DNA from: Alphaproteobacteria bacterium
GTDB taxonomy: Bacteria > Pseudomonadota > Alphaproteobacteria > SP197
NCBI GenBank assembly: GCA_965207785.1
Contig: CBDBNO010000010.1
Location: forward strand, 202,108 to 266,107
DNA: 64,000 nucleotides
Direction of reading: 5' to 3'
This document shows positions 1 to 30,884 of the stretch, piece by piece. Made by a program: the position numbers and the translations under genes. A model generated the notes under the pieces. The model had not been told where the DNA came from, did not search any database, and saw only the letters and a list, made by a program, of their open reading frames with translations. How positions within the stretch are numbered: position 1 is the stretch's first letter; each line of letters begins with the position of its first letter.

Positions 1-1373
1 TGCGCAAGATAATCGCGAAGATCGCGCAACAAGGCTGTTTCGGCACCTCCGGCGACGGCAAGGAAATCCTCGGTATCGGCAAGAGCCTTGGGGAGCGTTA
101 GCCAGGGAACTGCACTTTCGGCAGCCATGAGGCGTTGCGCCACGCCGATTTCATATGCGTGGCGGGCTGGTTCCGGCATAACTTCGGAAGCTTCGGTGTG
201 GATGAGTCTCTCCCCTAAGATTTGAAGGCGGGCATCAGACAATCCTTGCAGAATCGCCGGGCGTGCGGACCATTCGGCCAAATGGAACGCGGCCATAGCT
301 GTCTGATCGTCAATTCCCGTAAAACCGTCATAGATTTGCTCTTCGACGTGCCGGGACGGTTTCTTCGGCTCGCGGGTTGCGAGGAAAGCGGCAATGAGGC
401 GTTGGACAAGCACGTTGTCGCGGCGGACGCGCGCAGCGCGGTCTCTCAGATCCACAATGTCCGGCACCATAGATTGTATGTGCTCGGGCGCATCATCATA
501 CAAGGCAACGCACGGACAGGCGTTGGCACGCAAAACTCGCACGGGCTTCGGTCTAACGGAAAGCCGTTCAACCAATTGGTGGTCAGGGAGAACGGCCAAC
601 TCTTCGGGATCTACGGCAAGGTTGAACACAAACAGCTGCGAACTGTTGTCCGGATTGGGTCCAAGGTTCGTAACCATCCAGGAGTACACGTTGCCGAAAA
701 AGATGTCGGTGAGGGAAAAAAACTCTTCCTGCTCCACAAAATCCAATACGGCGGCTTTCTGGGAGAATCGGACAAAGTTCGACCAGTGGCCCTCAGCTCG
801 ATCGGCTAGGATGCGGCATACATGGATCGTCGCCTCCACGTCACCCATTGCATCATGGGCAGCAAATTGGCTGTAGCCGTTGATCGGAGCAAGCATGTCA
901 AGCTTGAAGGTAGCCCGACCACTCTTGTCGATCGGCAACGAAAGAACACCTGGTTGGAACAAGTTAATCGCCTTCATGATTCGCAGACTGTCCGAACGGG
1001 AATTGCCGTTTGTATTGGTGAGGTATGGGGCGTGCAGAGTCTTGAATAGTGCCTGGCGTAGAAGATGCTCGTCGAAGGCCATGGAGTTGTGGCCGACGAA
1101 GATCGCCGGCGACCATTCATCGAGCTTGGCCTTGATTGCGCGCACCATCTGGTAATGGCTGGGCAGGTCCGGGGCGATGAGCTCGTCAATGGTTATGGCT
1201 GTAACGCGCATGGCACCAGGCGACGGTACGACGTATGGGAGCAGTCGGCAGCGAATTTCAAATCGTTCCAATTCGCGCAACTCGTGATCAGTCCTGATCG
1301 CGCCGAACTGGAGAATTTGGTCGAAAGCGGTGTTGGTTCCTGTGGTTTCCGTGTCGTAGAATACGAAACTCAA
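1..1373 (-). CDS. sbcB: Exodeoxyribonuclease I (SbcB-like DEDDh 3'-5' exonuclease); partial, C-terminal end lies beyond window start
   Basis: Hand translation of the minus strand from TTG at 1373 gives LSFVFYDTETTGTNTAFDQILQFGAIRTD...NSRSDSL...HAHDAMGDVEAT, matching ExoI motifs (DxE, HAHDAM). AGGAG lies 8 nt upstream. This ORF is not in the supplied track because it starts with TTG and runs off the window. Confidence 0.75.
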   Translation of the reverse strand, partial: MSFVFYDTETTGTNTAFDQILQFGAIRTDHELRELERFEIRCRLLPYVVPSPGAMRVTAITIDELIAPDLPSHYQMVRAIKAKLDEWSPAIFVGHNSMAFDEHLLRQALFKTLHAPYLTNTNGNSRSDSLRIMKAINLFQPGVLSLPIDKSGRATFKLDMLAPINGYSQFAAHDAMGDVEATIHVCRILADRAEGHWSNFVRFSQKAAVLDFVEQEEFFSLTDIFFGNVYSWMVTNLGPNPDNSSQLFVFNLAVDPEELAVLPDHQLVERLSVRPKPVRVLRANACPCVALYDDAPEHIQSMVPDIVDLRDRAARVRRDNVLVQRLIAAFLATREPKKPSRHVEEQIYDGFTGIDDQTAMAAFHLAEWSARPAILQGLSDARLQILGERLIHTEASEVMPEPARHAYEIGVAQRLMAAESAVPWLTLPKALADTEDFLAVAGGAETALLRDLRDYLA

Positions 1374-1391
1374 GCTGGTTTCTCCTAGATG

Positions 1392-1925
1392 TCACGCGAA
1401 CAGGTTTCCAAGCCGAAAACGCATGGCGGACGTACTGACCTTGAAGCTTCTGGCCAACGCGGTCACCGCGCTTTCGTCGTCGATGTCGAACGGCTCGTTG
1501 CCCAGCGCCTTCGCAAGCATGGCTTTCGGCATCAATAGTTCCGCAGCAAAGAGGTTGGCTTCGATCTCCATCACGTCAACTCCTTCCGTCGATACCGAAT
1601 CGCGCATCAGCATCGGAGATGCCAAGGCTTTATCGACGTGCACCTCCTTGGTGATTTGCGACTTGTGAAGGGTCAAGTGGCCGCATTCATGGGCGATGGT
1701 GAAGCGCTGGCGGTTGGGATGGTGAAGAGCATTGACGCCGATTATCGGTTTGCCGTCCTTCAAGTAGATCATCCCGGATAGTTCGTCATCAAGCGGCGAA
1801 AATCTCAGTGTGGCGCCGAGTGTTCTTACAATCCGTTCGACAGGAACTGGCGGAGCCATCACTTCATGGTCGTCAAGAAGGGACTGTGCCCGGATCAAGA
1901 TAACCTTTCTTCGTCTTGGGTTCAT
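1392..1925 (-). CDS. ImmA/IrrE-family zinc metallopeptidase (COG2856, CapP-like)
   Basis: 177 aa with the HEXXH motif (IAHECGHLTL) in the family-typical position. Its ATG overlaps the stop of the upstream XRE gene (ATGA at 1925-1928). Confidence 0.85.
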   Translation of the reverse strand: MNPRRRKVILIRAQSLLDDHEVMAPPVPVERIVRTLGATLRFSPLDDELSGMIYLKDGKPIIGVNALHHPNRQRFTIAHECGHLTLHKSQITKEVHVDKALASPMLMRDSVSTEGVDVMEIEANLFAAELLMPKAMLAKALGNEPFDIDDESAVTALARSFKVSTSAMRFRLGNLFA

Positions 1926-2299
1926 CAGTCGGTCTCCGGTGTTTCTTGGTTATCGGTGTGCAGGGCATCACCTATCAGACGCAACACGTCCTGCCGTTGC
2001 GTTTCGCTGAGTCCCTCGGCGGGAAGGGGCAGCTCAGCAGGCTCGTCATCACGGGGGGGCGGCAGTGGCATTAGAACACCCGGGGAATCGAGGTCGAGTG
2101 CGGTGGCGATGGCATAAAGGTGATGCAGCAGGACTTGCTGACGGCCGGCTTCAATGTTGGCGAGTGACGCGCGCGAGATGCCGATTTCGGCAGCGAGCTG
2201 GGCTTGGGTGCGGGGAGCGCCCGCACGAAAGTGCCTGATGTGCCGGCCCACTTCCCTATAGATGTCACTTGGCCTCATGTGTGGATAGTACCGGAACAC
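1925..2299 (-). CDS. XRE-family HTH transcriptional regulator (CapH-like repressor) with acidic C-terminal tail
   Basis: HTH_3-like segment TQAQLAAEIGISRASLANIEAGRQ. Translationally coupled to the downstream ImmA gene. An alternative ATG start lies at 2278. Confidence 0.8.
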   Translation of the reverse strand: MFRYYPHMRPSDIYREVGRHIRHFRAGAPRTQAQLAAEIGISRASLANIEAGRQQVLLHHLYAIATALDLDSPGVLMPLPPPRDDEPAELPLPAEGLSETQRQDVLRLIGDALHTDNQETPETD

Positions 2300-2330
2300 A
2301 CAAGAGATGCCAAGCTCGCAAACAGCATAT

Positions 2331-2345
2331 GTTTGTTTAACAAAC
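2331..2345. promoter_or_regulatory. Inverted repeat GTTTG-N5-CAAAC in an AT-rich divergent intergenic region; candidate operator for the XRE regulator
   Basis: gtttgtttaacaaac read directly. It sits in the only AT-rich stretch (2320-2370) between the divergent XRE gene and the Ubl operon. A TTGACG -35-like hexamer is at 2365-2370. Confidence 0.35.
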
Positions 2346-2452
2346 GTGTAAGATGTTTTTTTTCTTGACGGGCCAGTTCATCGGTGCGATGCTACGGATT
2401 GAACCGGGCACAGAGGCGCCCGACCACCTGAACGGAAATGAGGTGTTGAACT

Positions 2453-3178
2453 ATGGATGAACGCAACCTGGTCGTAGAGGACCGCAACCATCCGCGGGAT
2501 GGTGTGGAACGAGAAAAGGGCCCGTCCGGCACCTTCACAATCAATGTGGGCAACGACGCTCTCGAGTTCCAGGGTGTAGACATGAAAGATCCGGTGCCCA
2601 CGGGCCGTCAGATTATCGAGGCGGCCAAGCTAGGCCCAGTCGAGGCGTTCCTGCTTTTCGCCGTCTCTCATGACCGCCGGCTCAGTGAAGTCAAACTTGA
2701 TGAGACCGTCGATATCCGCGGAGACGCCGAAAAGCTCTTCCTTGTCTTCAAGAACGACCGGTCTTGGCGCGGGCTCATCGACGGCAAGCGGTTCGAGTGG
2801 GGCGCGGAGGCAATCAACGGCCGCGTGCTGAAGTGGCTGGCTGGAGTCGATCCCGCAACGCACGGCGTTTGGCTCGAACTGCGAGACGAACCCGACCGGC
2901 TGATCGGCGACGACGAACAGGTGTCGCTGTCGACTGCAGGTGTCGAACGCTTTCGGACCGACCCGCTGTTTCGCGTGTGTGTCGAGGACGAATTCCATCC
3001 GTGGACTCGGCCGACCATCACGACTGAGGAGATTGCCGCGTTGGGCGGTTGGGATATCTCGCAGGGCGTTATCGAAGTCGACCCTGACCAGAACGAGCGC
3101 ACACTTTCGCCGGAAGAGGTCATCAAGCTGCGACCCGATGTGTCGTACGGCAAGAAGCTTCGTTTCAAGAGGGGATAG
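2453..3178 (+). CDS. Multi-ubiquitin (tandem beta-grasp) ubiquitin-like protein, BilA-like; C-terminus ...LRFKRG
   Basis: 241 aa. Residue pattern resembles the Multiubiquitin family that travels with prokaryotic E1/E2/JAB genes. It ends in a single Gly before the stop. AGGTG RBS 9 nt upstream. First gene of a 4-gene operon. Confidence 0.65.
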   Translation: MDERNLVVEDRNHPRDGVEREKGPSGTFTINVGNDALEFQGVDMKDPVPTGRQIIEAAKLGPVEAFLLFAVSHDRRLSEVKLDETVDIRGDAEKLFLVFKNDRSWRGLIDGKRFEWGAEAINGRVLKWLAGVDPATHGVWLELRDEPDRLIGDDEQVSLSTAGVERFRTDPLFRVCVEDEFHPWTRPTITTEEIAALGGWDISQGVIEVDPDQNERTLSPEEVIKLRPDVSYGKKLRFKRG

Positions 3179-3180
3179 CT

Positions 3181-3570
3181 ATGAACTCGCGGATCGAGTC
3201 CGAGTTGGCACTTCTCCGGCTGCACTACTCCAGGGTGGACTATCTGGCGGAGAACGCGATGCACTGGTTTAGGGTTGAGATGCTCAAGACGCCCAAGAAA
3301 TGGGCGCCGGCAGAAATCCCCGTCGTGTTCGCCGTCACCGAAGGCCACCCTGGCGCGCAGCCTTACGGCTTCTTTGTGCCCGGGGAGTTGAACTTGGATG
3401 GCAATCCGCCCTCCGAGCATGGTGCGCCCCACCCCCCTCCGTTCGAGGGCATCTGGCGGTTTCTGTCGTGGCAGCCGGAAGGATGGCACCCAACAGGCGA
3501 TGTGCGCTCGGGCTCGAATCTGTGGGGCTGGGTACGGACATTCATGCACCGGTTGAGGGAAGGAGTCTGA
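3181..3570 (+). CDS. E2-like (UBC-fold) protein, BilB position; contains no cysteine
   Basis: 129 aa in the operon position of the E2. Has a HPG...GFFV segment resembling the E2 HPN...GxIC region, but there is not a single Cys in the ORF. Starts 2 nt after the Ubl stop. Confidence 0.5.
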   Translation: MNSRIESELALLRLHYSRVDYLAENAMHWFRVEMLKTPKKWAPAEIPVVFAVTEGHPGAQPYGFFVPGELNLDGNPPSEHGAPHPPPFEGIWRFLSWQPEGWHPTGDVRSGSNLWGWVRTFMHRLREGV

Positions 3571-3574
3571 AGGG

Positions 3575-4093
3575 ATGAACACCCTCATGTTAGACAAAGA
3601 CCTTCAGCGCCGCCTCTGGTCCCATCTCCTGCGCAAGGACTCGATGCAAGAACAGGCCGCTTTCCTTTTCTGCATGACGGAACCCGCAGATTGCGGGGTG
3701 ACGTTCGTGGCGGTTGATCAGGCCTTTCTGGGACCAGACGACTTCGTCGCCCAGCGTACTGACTACCTGGAACTGACGAATGAGACCCGGATCAGGCTGA
3801 TTAAGCGAGCGCATGTCCTAGGAACCTCGCTGGCCGAGCTTCACTCGCACCCTGGCCCTTGGCCGGCAGCTTTTTCTCTATCCGACCGGATTGGATTGAG
3901 AGAAACCGTACCGCATATGCGGTGGCGCTTGAAAAGGCGGCCCTACCTGGCCGTGGTGGTGGCGCCGTCAGGCTTCGACGCACTGGTTTGGTCGCGGGAC
4001 GCCAGGATTCCCGAGCCTCTGGCCGGGATCGACATTGGCGGCGAGCTCATGACGCCGACCAACTTCTCACTCGGAGGATGGGACGATGACTGA
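3575..4093 (+). CDS. JAB/MPN+ (JAMM) metallo-isopeptidase, BilC-like
   Basis: 172 aa with an upstream Glu and ELHSHPGPWPAAFSLSD, i.e. the HxH...S..D JAMM motif. GGAAGGAG RBS. Confidence 0.8.
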   Translation: MNTLMLDKDLQRRLWSHLLRKDSMQEQAAFLFCMTEPADCGVTFVAVDQAFLGPDDFVAQRTDYLELTNETRIRLIKRAHVLGTSLAELHSHPGPWPAAFSLSDRIGLRETVPHMRWRLKRRPYLAVVVAPSGFDALVWSRDARIPEPLAGIDIGGELMTPTNFSLGGWDDD

Positions 4094-4943
4094 GGATCGC
4101 TTTGATCGGAATGAACAGTTGTTTGGCAAAGAGGGCCAAGCTCGCTTGCGGCGTACCCGTGTGGCCGTCATGGGGGCAGGAGGGTTGGGCAGTCACGTTA
4201 TTGCGCAGGTTGCACTGCTCGGGGTGGGCGACATAGCGGCGGTTGACCGACAATGCGTCGCACGTTCAGATCGCAACCGCTATCTCGGCGTGTGGGACAA
4301 GGATCCGATTCCCGGGTCGCCAAAGGTGGCGCTCGCGAAACGCCATATCCACTTGATTGATCCCAGGATTACGGTCACACCGATTAAGGACGACATACTC
4401 TCGGCGCCCAGCCTCGGCGCGATTCAAAAGGCCGATTTCGTTTTCGGATGTGTGGACAATGACGGGGTCCGATTCTTCATCAACGAGGCATGTCTTGCCT
4501 ACGAGAAGCCGCTGATCGATCTGGCTTCCGACGTGCCTGAACCAGGGGTGTTCGGCGGCCACGTTGCGATCGTCTCTGGTAGTCTTGGCTGCATGCACTG
4601 CCTCGACCTTCTTGATCCCGACGAGGTGCGCCGATACCTCTCACCGCCCGAATTAGTTGAAAACGAAGACGCTGTCTACGGGATCAAGGCGAGCGCGCTT
4701 GCGGAGACCGGCCCTTCGGTTGTATCGGTGAATGGGGCAGTCGCCTCACTTGGCGTGACTGCTTTCATGGCACTAGCGACAGGAATGCACCTCCCTTACG
4801 CATTCCTGACCTATCGTGGAGACCGAGGTACAGTCACGCGCAAGACGATCAAGGCTGCCGAAGACTGCTACTATTGCTCCGTGGTGCGCGGTCAGGGTGA
4901 GTGGGCGAATCTTGAGCGGTACTTTCGAAAGGCCGCTGCTTGA
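4086..4943 (+). CDS. ThiF/MoeB-family E1-like ubiquitin-activating enzyme, BilD-like
   Basis: 285 aa. Rossmann motif VAVMGAGGLGSHV. Two Cys pairs (GCMHC, CYYC) form a MoeB-like Zn site. Overlaps the JAB gene by 8 nt with a GGAGGA RBS. Confidence 0.85.
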   Translation: MTEDRFDRNEQLFGKEGQARLRRTRVAVMGAGGLGSHVIAQVALLGVGDIAAVDRQCVARSDRNRYLGVWDKDPIPGSPKVALAKRHIHLIDPRITVTPIKDDILSAPSLGAIQKADFVFGCVDNDGVRFFINEACLAYEKPLIDLASDVPEPGVFGGHVAIVSGSLGCMHCLDLLDPDEVRRYLSPPELVENEDAVYGIKASALAETGPSVVSVNGAVASLGVTAFMALATGMHLPYAFLTYRGDRGTVTRKTIKAAEDCYYCSVVRGQGEWANLERYFRKAAA

Positions 4944-4945
4944 AC

Positions 4946-5007
4946 ATGCATGCCGATCATATTGAGCACTGCGCCGTACATCCTACGGACTTTCGGCATG
5001 CATTGTG
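4946..5007. terminator. Long imperfect hairpin immediately after the E1 stop (possible operon terminator / island boundary structure)
   Basis: catgcatgccga (4946-4957) pairs with tcggcatgcat (4997-5007). A nested ccgta/tacgg stem is inside. No clean U-tract follows. Confidence 0.3.
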
Positions 5008-5186
5008 AGTTCCCTGTCTGTCTTGCCAACTGACCGCCTACCACGTCTTCCAATCCACGTCCTCGAACAGATGCGCACGCGTGTACTGCCGCCCATTGAT
5101 ATTGGCCTGTGAAACAGAGAATTCCGCTACTTGTGGAGTATGGCCTGGGCACTTCCGCTAAGAGGAACCGAACCGCTGACGCGACG

Positions 5187-5456
5187 TCAAGACTGTCCCG
5201 GCATTCGGAGCTCGAGGTGAATAGAGTCCACGGTAGCTAGTGAGATCAGCTTCACGGCCTCAGCCACAATGTATCCGTCGCTCGCCTCGATCACCAAGCA
5301 ATCGAGCCCTGCCCGAGCGTAGCGAGGGCATAGATCCAGGATCACGTGGTGCTCCCAACCGGAAGGACGACCACTCCAAATTGTCGGATCGTGATTGCGA
5401 AGTTTATCGGCTTGAAGTAGTCGGGTACGCCGTGCCATTGCCTGACTGCGGACCAC
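5187..5456 (-). CDS. Hypothetical small ORF / possible gene remnant
   Basis: 89-aa ORF starting at GTG 10 nt after the proW stop. Its GC3 (about 58%) is far lower than the flanking genes and there is no recognisable motif. Confidence 0.2.
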   Translation of the reverse strand: MVRSQAMARRTRLLQADKLRNHDPTIWSGRPSGWEHHVILDLCPRYARAGLDCLVIEASDGYIVAEAVKLISLATVDSIHLELRMPGQS

Positions 5457-5466
5457 GAGATCTTCG

Positions 5467-7548
5467 TCAGGTGGAAAGGCCGAGGTCGCGTTTCTTGCCG
5501 GCGGCCCAGGCCTGGATGATGCGGTCGGCGATCATGGCCATGAGGGCCATGGATCCGCCGGCGATGACGCCCTGGCCAAACTTGGCGTTGGTGAGGCTGT
5601 CGTAGACCCATTGGCCGAGACCCTTGGTGCCGACGAGGGCGGCGATGACGAGCATGGCGAGGGCGAACATCACCACCTGGTTGAGGCCCACCATGATCTC
5701 CGGGATCGCGAGGGGGAGCTTGACCTTCCAGAGGACCTGGCGCTCGGTGCAGCCCATCATGCGGGCGGCCTCGATGGCCACGGGATCGACGTGGCGGATG
5801 CCGTGCTCGGTGTAGCGGATCGCCGGCACGATGGCGTACATGATGATCGCCAGGAGCGCCGAGAAATCCCCCACCAGGAACACCATCACCACGGGGATGA
5901 GGAAGACGAAGAGCGGCATGGTCTGCAGGGTGTCGTTGATCGGCCGCAGGACGGCGGAGACACGGTCGTTCTGCGCCGCCCAGATTCCTAAGGCCCCGCC
6001 GGCCACGAAGCAGATGATGACCGAGGTGGCGGTGAGGTAGAACGACAGCATGGCCCGTGGCCAGGCGCCGCTCACCAGCATGAAGAGCATGCCGAGGAAG
6101 GCGAACAGCGCAACCCTCCAGCCGCCGACCTGAAAGGCGATGAGCGTGACGGCGGCCATGAAGACGGGCCACGGCGTGCCGGACGAACCGTAGTAGAAGA
6201 GGATGCCCAGGAGCGCCGTGGCGACGGCGGCGCGCCAGCCGCCCAGCCTTGCCGCCAGGGTGCCGATGGCCACCAGGATCATCCAGTAGATGACGGAAGC
6301 CAGCGCCGTCATCTCGAACCCCCACGAGGTGGGCCGCGCAATCCTTTCGAGGCCCGCCTTCATGGGCAGCATGAAGAAATAGAGCGTGTAGGTCTTGATG
6401 GCGTCCGTGGTGTCGAAGAAGTTGCGGGTGAACCAGGAGACCGCCGTGTTGAGGCCCTCGGCCGGGTAGATGATCCAGGCATCGGGATAGGCGTTGAACA
6501 CCGGCACCGCCCATGCGAGCAGCGAGCCGGCGGCGACCGCTGCGACCATGGAGGTCAGCATGGGATGGCGGGCGATGTAGTTCCCTGAACGATGCACGTG
6601 GATCTCGCCCGAGCGTTCGGCGAAGCCGCGGCTGATGCGGTCCATCATCATGGCGATCAGCACGATGACCAGTCCGGCCAGCAGGCTCTGGCCGGTCTGG
6701 GCCTTGCGCATCGTGGAGAGCACTTCCCAGCCGATATCGGCGAAGCCGCCGATGATGGCGGCGATGATGACCATGGCGAGTGCCGCCATGATGGTCTGGT
6801 TGACGCCGATCATGATCGTGTGCATGGCGGCCGGAATGCGCACCAGGAAGAGAAGCTGGAAACCGTTGCAGCCGGACATCTGGCCGCTCTCGATGACGTT
6901 GTCGGGAACCCGCTGCAGACCCAGCATGAGATTGCGGACCATGGGCGGGCTGGCGTAGACCGCCGAGGCCACCATGCCGACCACCGGCCCGATGCCGAAG
7001 AGAATCAGGATGGGAATGAGATAGGCGAACGTCGGCACCGTCTGCATGACGTCGAGCGTCGGTTCGATGACGCGCCGGGCCCAGCGGAACTGGAAGCCGA
7101 GCAGTCCCATGACGAACCCGATCATGATCGAAAGCGGCACGGACATGCAGACCAGCGCCAGGGTCGACATGCTCTCGTCCCAGTATCCGACGACCACCAT
7201 GTAGAAGAGCGAGGCCGTGCAGAAGGCGGCGAGACGCCAGCCCTTGGCGGCGTAGGCGATGATCGCCACGATGGCGATCGTGACCGGCCACGGCGACGTC
7301 TGCAGCACGATCTGGATCCCCTCCATCGGCCATTCGAGGGCATCGGAAATCAACCGGAAGAGCGGCTTGAAGTTGGCCGTGAACCAGTCCATCAGATACT
7401 CGAGGCCGGCCTCGATGGGGAGAATCCAGCCCTTCGGATACTTGACGAGCCACTTCGCGTCGTCACGCAGGATGAGGCAAACAATCGCCAGGACGCCGAA
7501 GACCAGCCAGACCAAGAGCCTGGGCGGCAGCAGGCGCGCCGGGTTCAC
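5467..7548 (-). CDS. Glycine betaine/proline-type ABC transporter permease, duplicated (fused double ProW-like) transmembrane protein
   Basis: 693 aa, very hydrophobic, with two BPD_transp_1-like halves. ATGA overlap with the downstream ATPase gene. Confidence 0.85.
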   Translation of the reverse strand: MNPARLLPPRLLVWLVFGVLAIVCLILRDDAKWLVKYPKGWILPIEAGLEYLMDWFTANFKPLFRLISDALEWPMEGIQIVLQTSPWPVTIAIVAIIAYAAKGWRLAAFCTASLFYMVVVGYWDESMSTLALVCMSVPLSIMIGFVMGLLGFQFRWARRVIEPTLDVMQTVPTFAYLIPILILFGIGPVVGMVASAVYASPPMVRNLMLGLQRVPDNVIESGQMSGCNGFQLLFLVRIPAAMHTIMIGVNQTIMAALAMVIIAAIIGGFADIGWEVLSTMRKAQTGQSLLAGLVIVLIAMMMDRISRGFAERSGEIHVHRSGNYIARHPMLTSMVAAVAAGSLLAWAVPVFNAYPDAWIIYPAEGLNTAVSWFTRNFFDTTDAIKTYTLYFFMLPMKAGLERIARPTSWGFEMTALASVIYWMILVAIGTLAARLGGWRAAVATALLGILFYYGSSGTPWPVFMAAVTLIAFQVGGWRVALFAFLGMLFMLVSGAWPRAMLSFYLTATSVIICFVAGGALGIWAAQNDRVSAVLRPINDTLQTMPLFVFLIPVVMVFLVGDFSALLAIIMYAIVPAIRYTEHGIRHVDPVAIEAARMMGCTERQVLWKVKLPLAIPEIMVGLNQVVMFALAMLVIAALVGTKGLGQWVYDSLTNAKFGQGVIAGGSMALMAMIADRIIQAWAAGKKRDLGLST

Positions 7549-8612
7549 TCCGCATCCTCCCCGGCATGGCTGTCGGCGAGAGAGCTCAACACCATCTGGG
7601 CAGTGATGCTGCCAACGATGGCGCCCTCCCCGTTCTTCACGGCGATGACGTCCGAACCTTCGGCGAAGCGCGGCATGATCTCTTCGAGCGTGGCATGTTC
7701 GTCGACAACGTCATCGGTGGCGGGATGGGAAGCAGCAGCCGTGGCGATGTCGCCGGCGGTGATGACCTTCACCCGCGGCACGTCCTGGGTGAACTCGCTG
7801 ACATAGTCGTCGGCCGGCTGCATCACCACCTCGGCGGGGGTGCCGATCTGCACGATCCGGCCATCCTTCATGATGGCGATCCTGTCCGCCAGGCGCAGGG
7901 CCTCGAGGAAGTCGTGGGTGATGAAGACGATGGTCTTGTGGAGAAGTTGCTGCAGACGCAGGAACTCGTCCTGCATCTGCCGGCGGATCAGCGGATCGAG
8001 AGCGGAGAAGGGCTCGTCAAGGAACCACAGCTCCGGTTCGACAGCCAGGCTCCTGGCGATGCCGACACGCTGCTGCTGGCCGCCCGACAGCTCGCGCGGA
8101 TAGCTCGTCTCGCGCCCTCCCAGTCCGACGAGCTCGATCATTTCCATCGCCCGGGCGCGCCTTTCCTCCTTGGCGATTCCCTGGATCTGCAGGGGGAACG
8201 CCACGTTCTCGAGCACCGACAGATGCGGTAGGAGACCGAAGTTCTGGAACACCATGCCCATCTTGTGGCGGCGGATGTCGATCAGCTTGTCCCTGGAGAC
8301 CTGCAGGAGATCCTCGCCATCGAGAATCACCTCCCCTGCGGTCGGCTCGACGAGCCGGGAGAGACAGCGCACGATCGTCGATTTCCCGGAACCCGACAGG
8401 CCCATGATGACGAAGATCTCGCCGATGTGGACGTCGAACGTGACATCGCAGGCGGCACCGATGTGACCTGACTCGTTGATGGACCCGATCAGGCTTGTGG
8501 GATCGGCCACATCGCCATGGCCGTCCGTGAAGAACCTGTCGGCGTCGGGACCGTACACCTTCCAGACATGCCTGCACGTCAGCTTGACTTCCTGATCATC
8601 GGTTCCCGTCAT
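7545..8612 (-). CDS. proV: Glycine betaine/proline ABC transporter ATP-binding protein (ProV-like) with C-terminal CBS region
   Basis: Walker A (GLSGSGKST), ABC signature (LSGGQQQRV) and Walker B (LDEPFSALD). Confidence 0.9.
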   Translation of the reverse strand: MTGTDDQEVKLTCRHVWKVYGPDADRFFTDGHGDVADPTSLIGSINESGHIGAACDVTFDVHIGEIFVIMGLSGSGKSTIVRCLSRLVEPTAGEVILDGEDLLQVSRDKLIDIRRHKMGMVFQNFGLLPHLSVLENVAFPLQIQGIAKEERRARAMEMIELVGLGGRETSYPRELSGGQQQRVGIARSLAVEPELWFLDEPFSALDPLIRRQMQDEFLRLQQLLHKTIVFITHDFLEALRLADRIAIMKDGRIVQIGTPAEVVMQPADDYVSEFTQDVPRVKVITAGDIATAAASHPATDDVVDEHATLEEIMPRFAEGSDVIAVKNGEGAIVGSITAQMVLSSLADSHAGEDAE

Positions 8613-8782: not shown

Positions 8783-9916
8783 ATGCTCAGGACCGAGGAC
8801 ATCGAAGGCCTTGACCGCCCGACGGCTCAAGCCCGCGGCCTGCCGGGACATGCCTACACATGCGAGGACTTCGCCCGCCACGAGTACGCCCGGCTCTTCG
8901 CCAGGACCTGGACATTTGCCGGGTATGCCCACGAGGTGCCGGATGCCGGATCCGTCATGCCGAGGACACTGGCCGGCGTGCCCCTCCTCTTCACGCGCAC
9001 CCGTGACGGCGAGGTCAGGTGCTTCCACAACATCTGCACCCATCGGGGTACACAGCTCGTCGACGAGGCTGCCAGTGGTCTTGCCACCCTGCGCTGCCGC
9101 TATCACGGCTGGACCTACGATCTCGATGGCGCGCTGCGCCTGACACCCCACTGGGGCGGTCACAACCAGGGCCAGGGCGAAGGCTTCGAGAAGTCCTGCC
9201 ATGGTCTCAAGCCCGTTCGCATGGCGCGCTGGCACGACTGGATCTTCGTCAACGTCGATGGCCTCGCCGAACCCTTTGCCGACTACGCCGCCCCCTTCAT
9301 GGCCCATGTCGCCGAGTACGACCTCGACGACGCCACCTGGGCGCTGACGCTGCGCTACGACATTGCCGGCAACTGGAAGCTGGTGGCCGAGAACTACCTC
9401 GAGACGCTCCATCTTAACTTCGTGCACACCGTGCTCGCCGAGGCGGCTCCCTTCGAGCAGCACGAGGTCATCGCCGAGGACGCCTGTCTGGGCACCATCA
9501 TCAACGTCGGTCTGCCAGCCACCTGGACCAAGGCCGAGTCCCTTCCCCGCTGGCCGGGTATTGATCACGCCAACCGGACGGCCAAGAACCTGGCGCTCTT
9601 TCCCAACTTCAAGTTCGTGATCGGCCCCGACCATGCCTGCTCCATGGTGGAGTTTCCCGATGGCGCCGGCCAGTCCCACCAGCGCTGGGACTTCTACTTC
9701 CACGGCGACGGGGCCACGGCGCCGCGTTACGCCGAGTCAAGGAAGGCGATCATCGAGTTCTTCGACACCACCAATGTCGAGGACTTCAATGCCGTGGAGG
9801 CGGTGCACAAAGGCCACATGTCCCCGGCCATGCAGGGCGCCCGCTTCAACGGCATCTGGGAGGGGGGCGTGCACCACTTCCAGAAACTCGTTGCCCACTA
9901 CATGAGCGAACCATGA
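8783..9916 (+). CDS. Rieske [2Fe-2S] non-heme iron oxygenase alpha subunit (betaine/carnitine-type monooxygenase-like)
   Basis: The pair CTHRG...CRYHGW gives the CxH-x17-CxxH Rieske ligands. 377 aa. Adjacent to the betaine transporter genes. Confidence 0.8.
   Translation: MLRTEDIEGLDRPTAQARGLPGHAYTCEDFARHEYARLFARTWTFAGYAHEVPDAGSVMPRTLAGVPLLFTRTRDGEVRCFHNICTHRGTQLVDEAASGLATLRCRYHGWTYDLDGALRLTPHWGGHNQGQGEGFEKSCHGLKPVRMARWHDWIFVNVDGLAEPFADYAAPFMAHVAEYDLDDATWALTLRYDIAGNWKLVAENYLETLHLNFVHTVLAEAAPFEQHEVIAEDACLGTIINVGLPATWTKAESLPRWPGIDHANRTAKNLALFPNFKFVIGPDHACSMVEFPDGAGQSHQRWDFYFHGDGATAPRYAESRKAIIEFFDTTNVEDFNAVEAVHKGHMSPAMQGARFNGIWEGGVHHFQKLVAHYMSEP

Positions 9917-30792: not shown

Positions 30793-30884
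<92 letters not shown>

Follow-up and report, generated by a model that had tools for sequence, protein, structure and literature searches.

A cysteine-free BubB-type E2 with a predicted serine nucleophile in an unfused, Bub-like operon of an alphaproteobacterium

The DNA analysed here is a stretch of 64,000 nt (the window) from an Alphaproteobacteria bacterium (GTDB SP197; assembly GCA_965207785.1, contig CBDBNO010000010.1, positions 202,108–266,107 of the forward strand). Four separate ORFs encode a ubiquitin-like protein (Ubl), an E2-like protein, a JAB/JAMM peptidase and an E1-type adenylating enzyme (Table 1). The E2 gene starts 2 nt after the Ubl stop codon, the JAB frame follows 4 nt after the E2 gene, and JAB and E1 overlap by 8 nt. 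Genes for a CapH-like repressor and a CapP-like peptidase lie divergently upstream of the Ubl gene, and an ExoI-like exonuclease gene is found directly downstream of capP. Of 51 related loci, 12 have the exonuclease gene at the equivalent place, and the copy in one of these (L009) is annotated PF00929/PF26016 (RNase_T + ExoI_C); the gene may supply the branch with a fifth component of its own or belong to the CapH/CapP damage-sensing module. No inverted repeats that could represent a CapH operator were found in the 2299–2453 intergenic region, and promoter and terminator scans performed at chance level.

Table 1. Features of the conjugation operon and its divergent upstream genes (window coordinates).
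Feature	Position	Strand	Evidence
Cys-free BubB-like E2 (divergent UBC fold, Prok-E2_E/6e lineage), 129 aa	3181..3570	+	ORF, AF2 model, Foldseek, profile matches
Ser96 codon, predicted catalytic nucleophile (equivalent to BubB S333)	3466..3468	+	Conservation, profile alignments
Tyr62 codon, clade-invariant, at BubB D299 position	3364..3366	+	Alignments
BubA-like ubiquitin-like protein, 241 aa, three Multi_ubiq stretches, ends ...KRG-stop	2453..3178	+	Pfam PF14452, E=1.6e-31
Stand-alone JAB/JAMM peptidase (BubC-like), 172 aa	3575..4093	+	Weak Prok-JAB match; motif invariant
Single-domain E1/ThiF-type adenylating enzyme (BubD-like), 285 aa	4086..4943	+	Pfam ThiF, E=7e-33
E1 Tyr198 codon, crossover loop, predicted E1 nucleophile (BubCD Y370 analogue)	4677..4679	+	Conservation, loop position
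CapH-like HTH repressor, divergent	1925..2299	-	Pfam HTH_31/HTH_3; PADLOC capH 3e-08
CapP-like M78 metallopeptidase	1392..1925	-	Pfam Peptidase_M78 9e-25; PADLOC capP 1.6e-31
ExoI/RNase T-like DEDD exonuclease, cut by window edge	3..1391	-	463-aa open frame with FYDTETTG

The G+C content is 0.54–0.61 over the exonuclease-capP-capH-Ubl-E2-JAB-E1 block (window positions 1–5500), 0.62–0.66 in the flanking 5.5–10 kb and 0.634 across the whole window. The lower G+C of the block relative to its flanks suggests a horizontally acquired island. On the reverse strand, the block is followed by an ORF for a polytopic membrane protein of 693 aa (5467–7548) and an ABC ATPase of 355 aa (7545–8612) with the Walker A motif GLSGSGKST, which we take to be genes of ordinary host metabolism and the right-hand edge of the island; a further 377-aa ORF is located past the ATPase at 8783–9916. 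The sole tRNA gene in the window, tRNA-Ser(CGA) at 30793–30881, is ∼26 kb from the operon and thus not an obvious integration site for it.

The operon was compared with 45 related loci (L001–L045), 35 of them from named genomes that belong mostly to Alphaproteobacteria, with others from Latescibacterota, Dehalococcoidia, Gemmatimonadales, Acidobacteriota and Gemmataceae. All 45 keep the order Ubl-E2-JAB-E1, with fusions in some, and the first-pass annotation of this DNA was correct in placing the gene in an E2 slot: it lies between a Multi_ubiq Ubl and JAB plus ThiF/E1 in every one, and likewise in the loci added later (L046–L048, L050 and L051). Ubl and E2 are fused in five of the 45 (L006, L035, L041, L043 and L044) and JAB and E1 in four. 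Frequent neighbours of the related cassettes are restriction, Abi, DarT and transposase genes.

Translation of the E2 frame confirmed the observation from which the first-pass annotation had started, namely that the 129-aa product contains no cysteine. The bare count is not significant, given that the chance of finding none in 129 residues is estimated at roughly 0.2–0.3 for a cysteine content of ∼1%; it is the family-wide pattern that is significant. Cysteine is absent from 105 of 192 near-full-length relatives, while the others have 1–4 at scattered positions, and no column of the family alignment is a conserved cysteine, the highest occupancy of any column being 21 of ∼220 sequences.

One explanation for such a frame is an artefact of sequencing or assembly, or the decay of the gene or of the entire system, both of which had been raised at first pass. 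The absence of cysteine would fit this, as would the lack of Pfam, NCBIfam and PADLOC matches for the window protein; however, a search of 5.8 billion proteins yielded 75 homologues, nearly all of 129 aa and aligned end to end, the closest with up to 88% identity, and, of 1.84 billion cluster representatives (50% identity) searched with a profile, 338 matched at E<=1e-3. Pairwise dN/dS for the E2 gene (Nei-Gojobori) was 0.10–0.12 against the three closest loci (L011, L012 and L004), and the catalytic motifs are intact in all partner genes. Homologue length and dN/dS rule out a frameshift whose repair would restore a cysteine-containing frame, and a dN/dS of ∼0.1 together with conservation across >200 homologues excludes decay. 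On these comparisons a frameshift, an assembly error and a decaying gene are all excluded, and we give an artefact or decay a negligible probability. A cysteine-containing ORF that overlaps the gene in the +2 frame (3300–3578) was also considered and was set aside as lacking support in a GC-rich stretch. The contig index searched contained no identical copy of the window E2 protein.

Operons of this general type were described by Iyer, Burroughs & Aravind in 2006 as the 6e neighbourhood, in which a polyUbl and a JAB-E1 fusion occur with a metal-binding protein Y and with an E2 domain that lacks Cys and was termed "RWD-like inactive"; this E2 is sometimes a stand-alone gene between Ubl and JAB+E1 (PMC1779556). 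The name Bub ("bacterial ubiquitination-like") has since replaced "6E" and "DUF6527" operons, and Ye, Gong, Chambers & Corbett found the BubB E2 to be active, with an invariant serine (S333) at the canonical cysteine position to which Type I systems add an invariant H335 and D299 (10.1101/2024.11.21.623953). In the same work the Bub E1 was found to have an invariant crossover-loop tyrosine (Y370) instead of a cysteine, and conjugation was abolished by mutation of S333 or H335 (Type I), of S106 (Type II) or of the E1 tyrosine, so that the pathway runs on oxyesters; oxyester intermediates and Ubl-Lys conjugates were demonstrated for the Citrobacter and E. coli systems only. The existence of a Cys-less E2 is therefore already explained, the 6e E2 having been noted in 2006 and the Ser/Tyr oxyesters of Bub in 2024.

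An AF2 model of the window E2 (pLDDT 91.3, pTM 0.85; built on 27 homologues) has the topology α1-β1-β2-β3-β4-long loop-β5-loop-α2. The sole confident Foldseek match in the PDB was Citrobacter BubB (9eae_C; prob 1.00, TM 0.66, 13% identity), with RWD and UEV domains (2ebk, 3r3q) the next best and weak; the predicted fold is a divergent UBC type. Profiles were built for the window clade (A1) and for a subclade with a D-S-H signature described below (A2), and BubB alone was matched among PDB sequences (A1, E=1.6e-3; A2, E=8e-11). The window E2 itself had no match in Pfam (E<=0.1, then E<=10), NCBIfam or PADLOC, and thus falls below the PF14462 gathering threshold (25 bits) with no match even at E<=10. 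Among its relatives, it is the more divergent that match PF14462, at E=2e-5 to 3e-2 and just under the threshold (P0069, P0072 and P0075 score 24.7, 20.7 and 14.3 bits), and members of the D-S-H clade carry precomputed PF14462 matches at E<=1e-5. Comparison of A1 with A2 by hhalign (99.9% probability, E=2.5e-34) establishes homology to Prok-E2_E despite the subthreshold score of the window protein. By its predicted fold and profile matches, the window E2 is a real, conserved BubB-type protein of the Bub/6E family, in the Prok-E2_E (6e) lineage.

In the 221-sequence family alignment, column 62 is Tyr in 201 sequences and Asp in 17. All 17 D62 sequences have His at column 98, a residue found there in only four Y62 sequences, and these 17 form a separate subclade with the signature PD-N-F ... 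W-x-x-F-S-W-H (D-S-H). The A2 profile places these residues on D299, S333 and H335 of 9eae_C, and in the hhalign comparison PYGFFVP falls on PDNFYV, with W-R-F-L-S-W-Q lying on W-x-x-F-S-W-H. By these alignments, S96 is the equivalent of S333, Y62 of D299 and Q98 of H335. A first HMMER register had put W92 on S333 and S96 on S337, implying loss of the catalytic serine, since a shared "SW-x-PE" string pulled the alignment four residues out; it was rejected as a register error because of the D62/H98 covariation, the A2-BubB match, the hhalign result and the conservation of S96 with a single Cys. The correction of this four-residue misalignment with BubB by way of the D-S-H subclade is a methodological caution.

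Serine at column 96 is nearly universal in the family (199 of 203 members, 98%). One relative, P0213, has Cys in the serine column, His at +2 (...WLCLH...) and Tyr at column 62, and may have reverted naturally to thioester chemistry; a Ser/Cys exchange is of the kind that would be expected at a nucleophile position. Besides S96, the nearly invariant residues are W92, W97, W102, G111, N113 and R124, and conservation within the E2 peaks in the motif around S96 (W92, S96, W97, W102, N113). The branch to which the window belongs has Y at column 62 and mostly Q, S, A, T or N at column 98, and Y62 and S96 are its only invariant hydroxyl residues. Y-type sequences account for ∼130 of the 150 best representatives, a proportion biased by a search that was seeded from the Y-type clade; with at least ∼130 cluster representatives at 50% identity, mostly from Alphaproteobacteria, this clade is nonetheless clearly not small.

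These equivalences do not uphold the first-pass reading of HPG-x4-GFFV (residues 56–66) as an HPN...Cys active site. The segment corresponds to the GYP-x4-D299-x-FYV strand of BubB, where a helper residue is positioned, and S96 lies 40 residues downstream. Another of its suggestions, that a non-thiol nucleophile is used, is supported by the BubB-type match and, by analogy, by the Ser/Tyr oxyesters reported for the family (10.1101/2024.11.21.623953).

The first-pass annotation had also proposed a UEV-like pseudo-E2, i.e. a non-catalytic UEV/RWD-like protein that binds Ubl or bridges E1 and target while E1 transfers directly. This was the reading of Iyer et al. in 2006 (PMC1779556), Foldseek ranked RWD and UEV domains next after BubB, and the window branch lacks the Asp and His that have been proposed as activators of the serine. 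However, mutants of the E2 serine abolish conjugation in both tested Bub types, so that the reading has been overturned experimentally for the family outside the window branch, and the column aligned with S333 is 98% Ser in both branches, with Cys in one relative as is typical of a nucleophile position, within a motif that is the best conserved of the protein. It is because the Asp/His helpers are missing that we retain a pseudo-E2 as a minority possibility for the window branch, and an unlikely one. The absence of Asp and His (Type I) or Lys and His (Type II) means that the serine could be less reactive, or that the chemistry could differ.

A further reading, also improbable in our estimation, is that the nucleophile or relay differs from that of Bub, with Tyr62 itself the acceptor (Tyr-to-Tyr from Y198 of the E1) or with a Ser-Tyr dyad of new chemistry, S96 being in a supporting role. 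Y62 is branch-invariant, occupies the active-site position of D299 and is probably close to S96, judging from homology to the published BubB structure. D62 and H98 covary (17/17) and are jointly replaced by Tyr and a variable residue, Y62 and S96 are the invariant hydroxyls of the branch, and the E1 of the family already uses Tyr oxyesters. In contrast to Y62, which is branch-specific, S96 is kept in both branches, which makes serine the parsimonious nucleophile, and a Tyr acceptor is without structural or biochemical precedent in any E2. Tyr62 may instead be an activator or an oxyanion partner of the serine; these roles and that of acceptor are the candidates.

The partner genes support an active pathway as far as their sequences indicate. 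The window Ubl ends exactly at KRG (3173–3178, then stop), so no processing is needed. The KRG terminus is conserved across loci, and what follows it varies: the window and about half of L001–L045 end exactly at ...KRG, others have a tail of 1–9 aa (KRGAK, KRGCYALADRI) or continue into an E2 fusion, and this continuum implies that the need for JAB processing varies between close relatives. In the JAB protein, residues E26, H90-x-H92, S101 and D104 are invariant in 39 of 39 homologues, with numbering near that of E28, H91, H93 and D104 in Citrobacter BubCD, although a phmmer search of the PDB reached BubCD at a non-significant E=0.84.

The E1 matched MoeB, Uba4, ThiF and BubCD in the PDB, the last at 2.3e-13 over residues 22–230, and its adenylation residues are invariant. 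Five cysteines are also invariant, four in a CxxC...CxxC zinc site (C169/C172/C261/C264), which is typical of MoeB/ThiF/UBA5-type enzymes, and one in a GCVD motif (C122). None is in the crossover loop, where no column of residues 173–208 has Cys in more than 0–2 of 37 sequences, and the sole invariant residues between C172 and G209 are Y198-G199 (37/37). A JAB-E1 fusion from the D-S-H clade (459 aa) has a loop tyrosine at position 373, and Y370 of Citrobacter is in a 458-aa protein. Fragments of the E1 gave no match to BubCD at E<=1, or E=0.72 at best, and a C-terminal E1 profile matched the NEDD8-E1 UBA3 and not BubCD in the PDB; Y198 is accordingly placed as the predicted analogue of Y370 by loop position and conservation and not by a confident residue-level alignment.

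Three general characteristics of Bub were thus found in the window, namely a Cys-free, diverged UBC E2 with a serine, an E1 loop with Tyr and no Cys, and a β-grasp Ubl with a C-terminal Gly. A fourth, the DUF6527 serine protease BubE, was not found in the window or in ∼50 related loci, in searches made without a DUF6527 positive control. DUF6527 was absent from the Pfam families listed (25 of 43) for 150 ORFs downstream of E1 in ∼30 loci, and the families that were listed were a heterogeneous set of transposase, Abi, DarT, HipA and housekeeping genes. It was likewise absent from the 10 ORFs immediately adjoining E1 and from the precomputed Pfam tables of the related loci, and a regex for the C-x3-C...H-x2-C signature had no hit in any locus or in the entire 64-kb window. 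Small ORFs of 81 and 99 aa that overlap or abut the end of E1 in L047/L048 (6757–7002) and L043 (7732–8028) have faint Pfam matches to TMEM164 and colicin-K immunity, not to DUF6527, and may be unrecognised accessory proteins or spurious ORFs.

It has been reported that "all Bub operons encode BubE", and the 544 catalogued operons of Table S1 in that report were drawn from DUF6527-containing operons (10.1101/2024.11.21.623953). Cassettes without BubE, including the D-S-H loci L046–L048, are missing from the catalogue because of this construction, and the sequences described here indicate that the published catalogue does not cover all Bub operons.

Type I Bub (6E.1; Citrobacter BubAB/BubCD/BubE; PDB 9eae, 9eav) shares with the window a Cys-free UBC-fold E2 with an invariant Ser, a multi-β-grasp Ubl ending in Gly, a JAMM peptidase, frequent CapH/CapP, a homodimer-type E1 with Tyr and no crossover-loop Cys, and the order Ubl-E2-JAB-E1. 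It differs in its Ubl-E2 and JAB-E1 fusions, whereas the window genes are unfused, and the window Ubl has no need of processing, the operon has no DUF6527/BubE gene, and Y62 and Q98 replace D299 and H335 in a protein with ∼13% identity to BubB. Fusion state varies within the branch and is thus not a deep distinction from Type I. Type II Bub (6E.2; E. coli BubA/BubBD/BubE) would be comparable to the window branch in its serine E2, tyrosine E1 and oxyester logic, but has an E2-E1 fusion, no JAB, Lys and His beside the Ser, and BubE.

The window operon also belongs to the lineage of 6e, PF14462 and PF14452 (PMC1779556), with which it shares the polyUbl, Cys-less E2, JAB and E1; unlike the window, the 2006 description includes protein Y (C-x3-C...H-x2-C), and it called the E2 inactive. 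Bil systems (BilABCD) resemble the window in having four separate genes for Ubl, E2, JAB and E1 and in their defence-island contexts. The Bil framing implied at first pass does not hold, however, since the Bil E2 has a catalytic Cys and the Bil E1 an IAD-AAD-CYS architecture, whereas the window E2 is Cys-free and of the Prok-E2_E (6e) lineage, not BilB, and the 285-aa E1 has one ThiF-type domain. Eukaryotic UEV/RWD pseudo-E2s share a UBC-like fold without the catalytic Cys, but lack a conserved nucleophile in place of the Cys, a position at which the window family has a near-invariant Ser (98%) in an operon with an E1.

[quoted passage not shown] In such a pathway, the E1 would adenylate the Ubl, a three-β-grasp protein made already mature, at its C-terminal Gly, and Tyr198 of the crossover loop would take the Ubl as an oxyester. 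A second oxyester, on Ser96, would form as the Ubl passes to the E2, and the E2 would transfer the Ubl to a target lysine by aminolysis. The JAMM peptidase would remove C-terminal tails or fusions where these are present and, as there is no BubE, is probably responsible for deconjugation too. CapH probably represses the operon until DNA damage or phage infection occurs, when CapP would relieve the repression. CapH/CapP genes accompany 31% of the catalogued Bub operons, and no Bub operon is so far known to protect against phage.

More speculatively, the BubE-less branch could represent a third solution to the E2 active site, based on a Ser-Tyr pair in which Tyr62 is the base or oxyanion partner or else the acceptor in a Tyr-to-Tyr(-to-Ser) relay, and with the JAMM peptidase alone responsible for deconjugation; we regard this as possible, though rather doubtful. 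What is new is a sizeable, mostly alphaproteobacterial and uncatalogued branch of the family that has no BubE, is usually unfused, and carries an invariant Tyr in place of the Asp/His pair. Such a branch would constitute a natural experiment, both on what activates an oxyester E2, an enzyme normally sluggish, and on whether BubE is essential to the pathway, and its mature-ended Ubl and unfused proteins would make it a convenient system for reconstitution.
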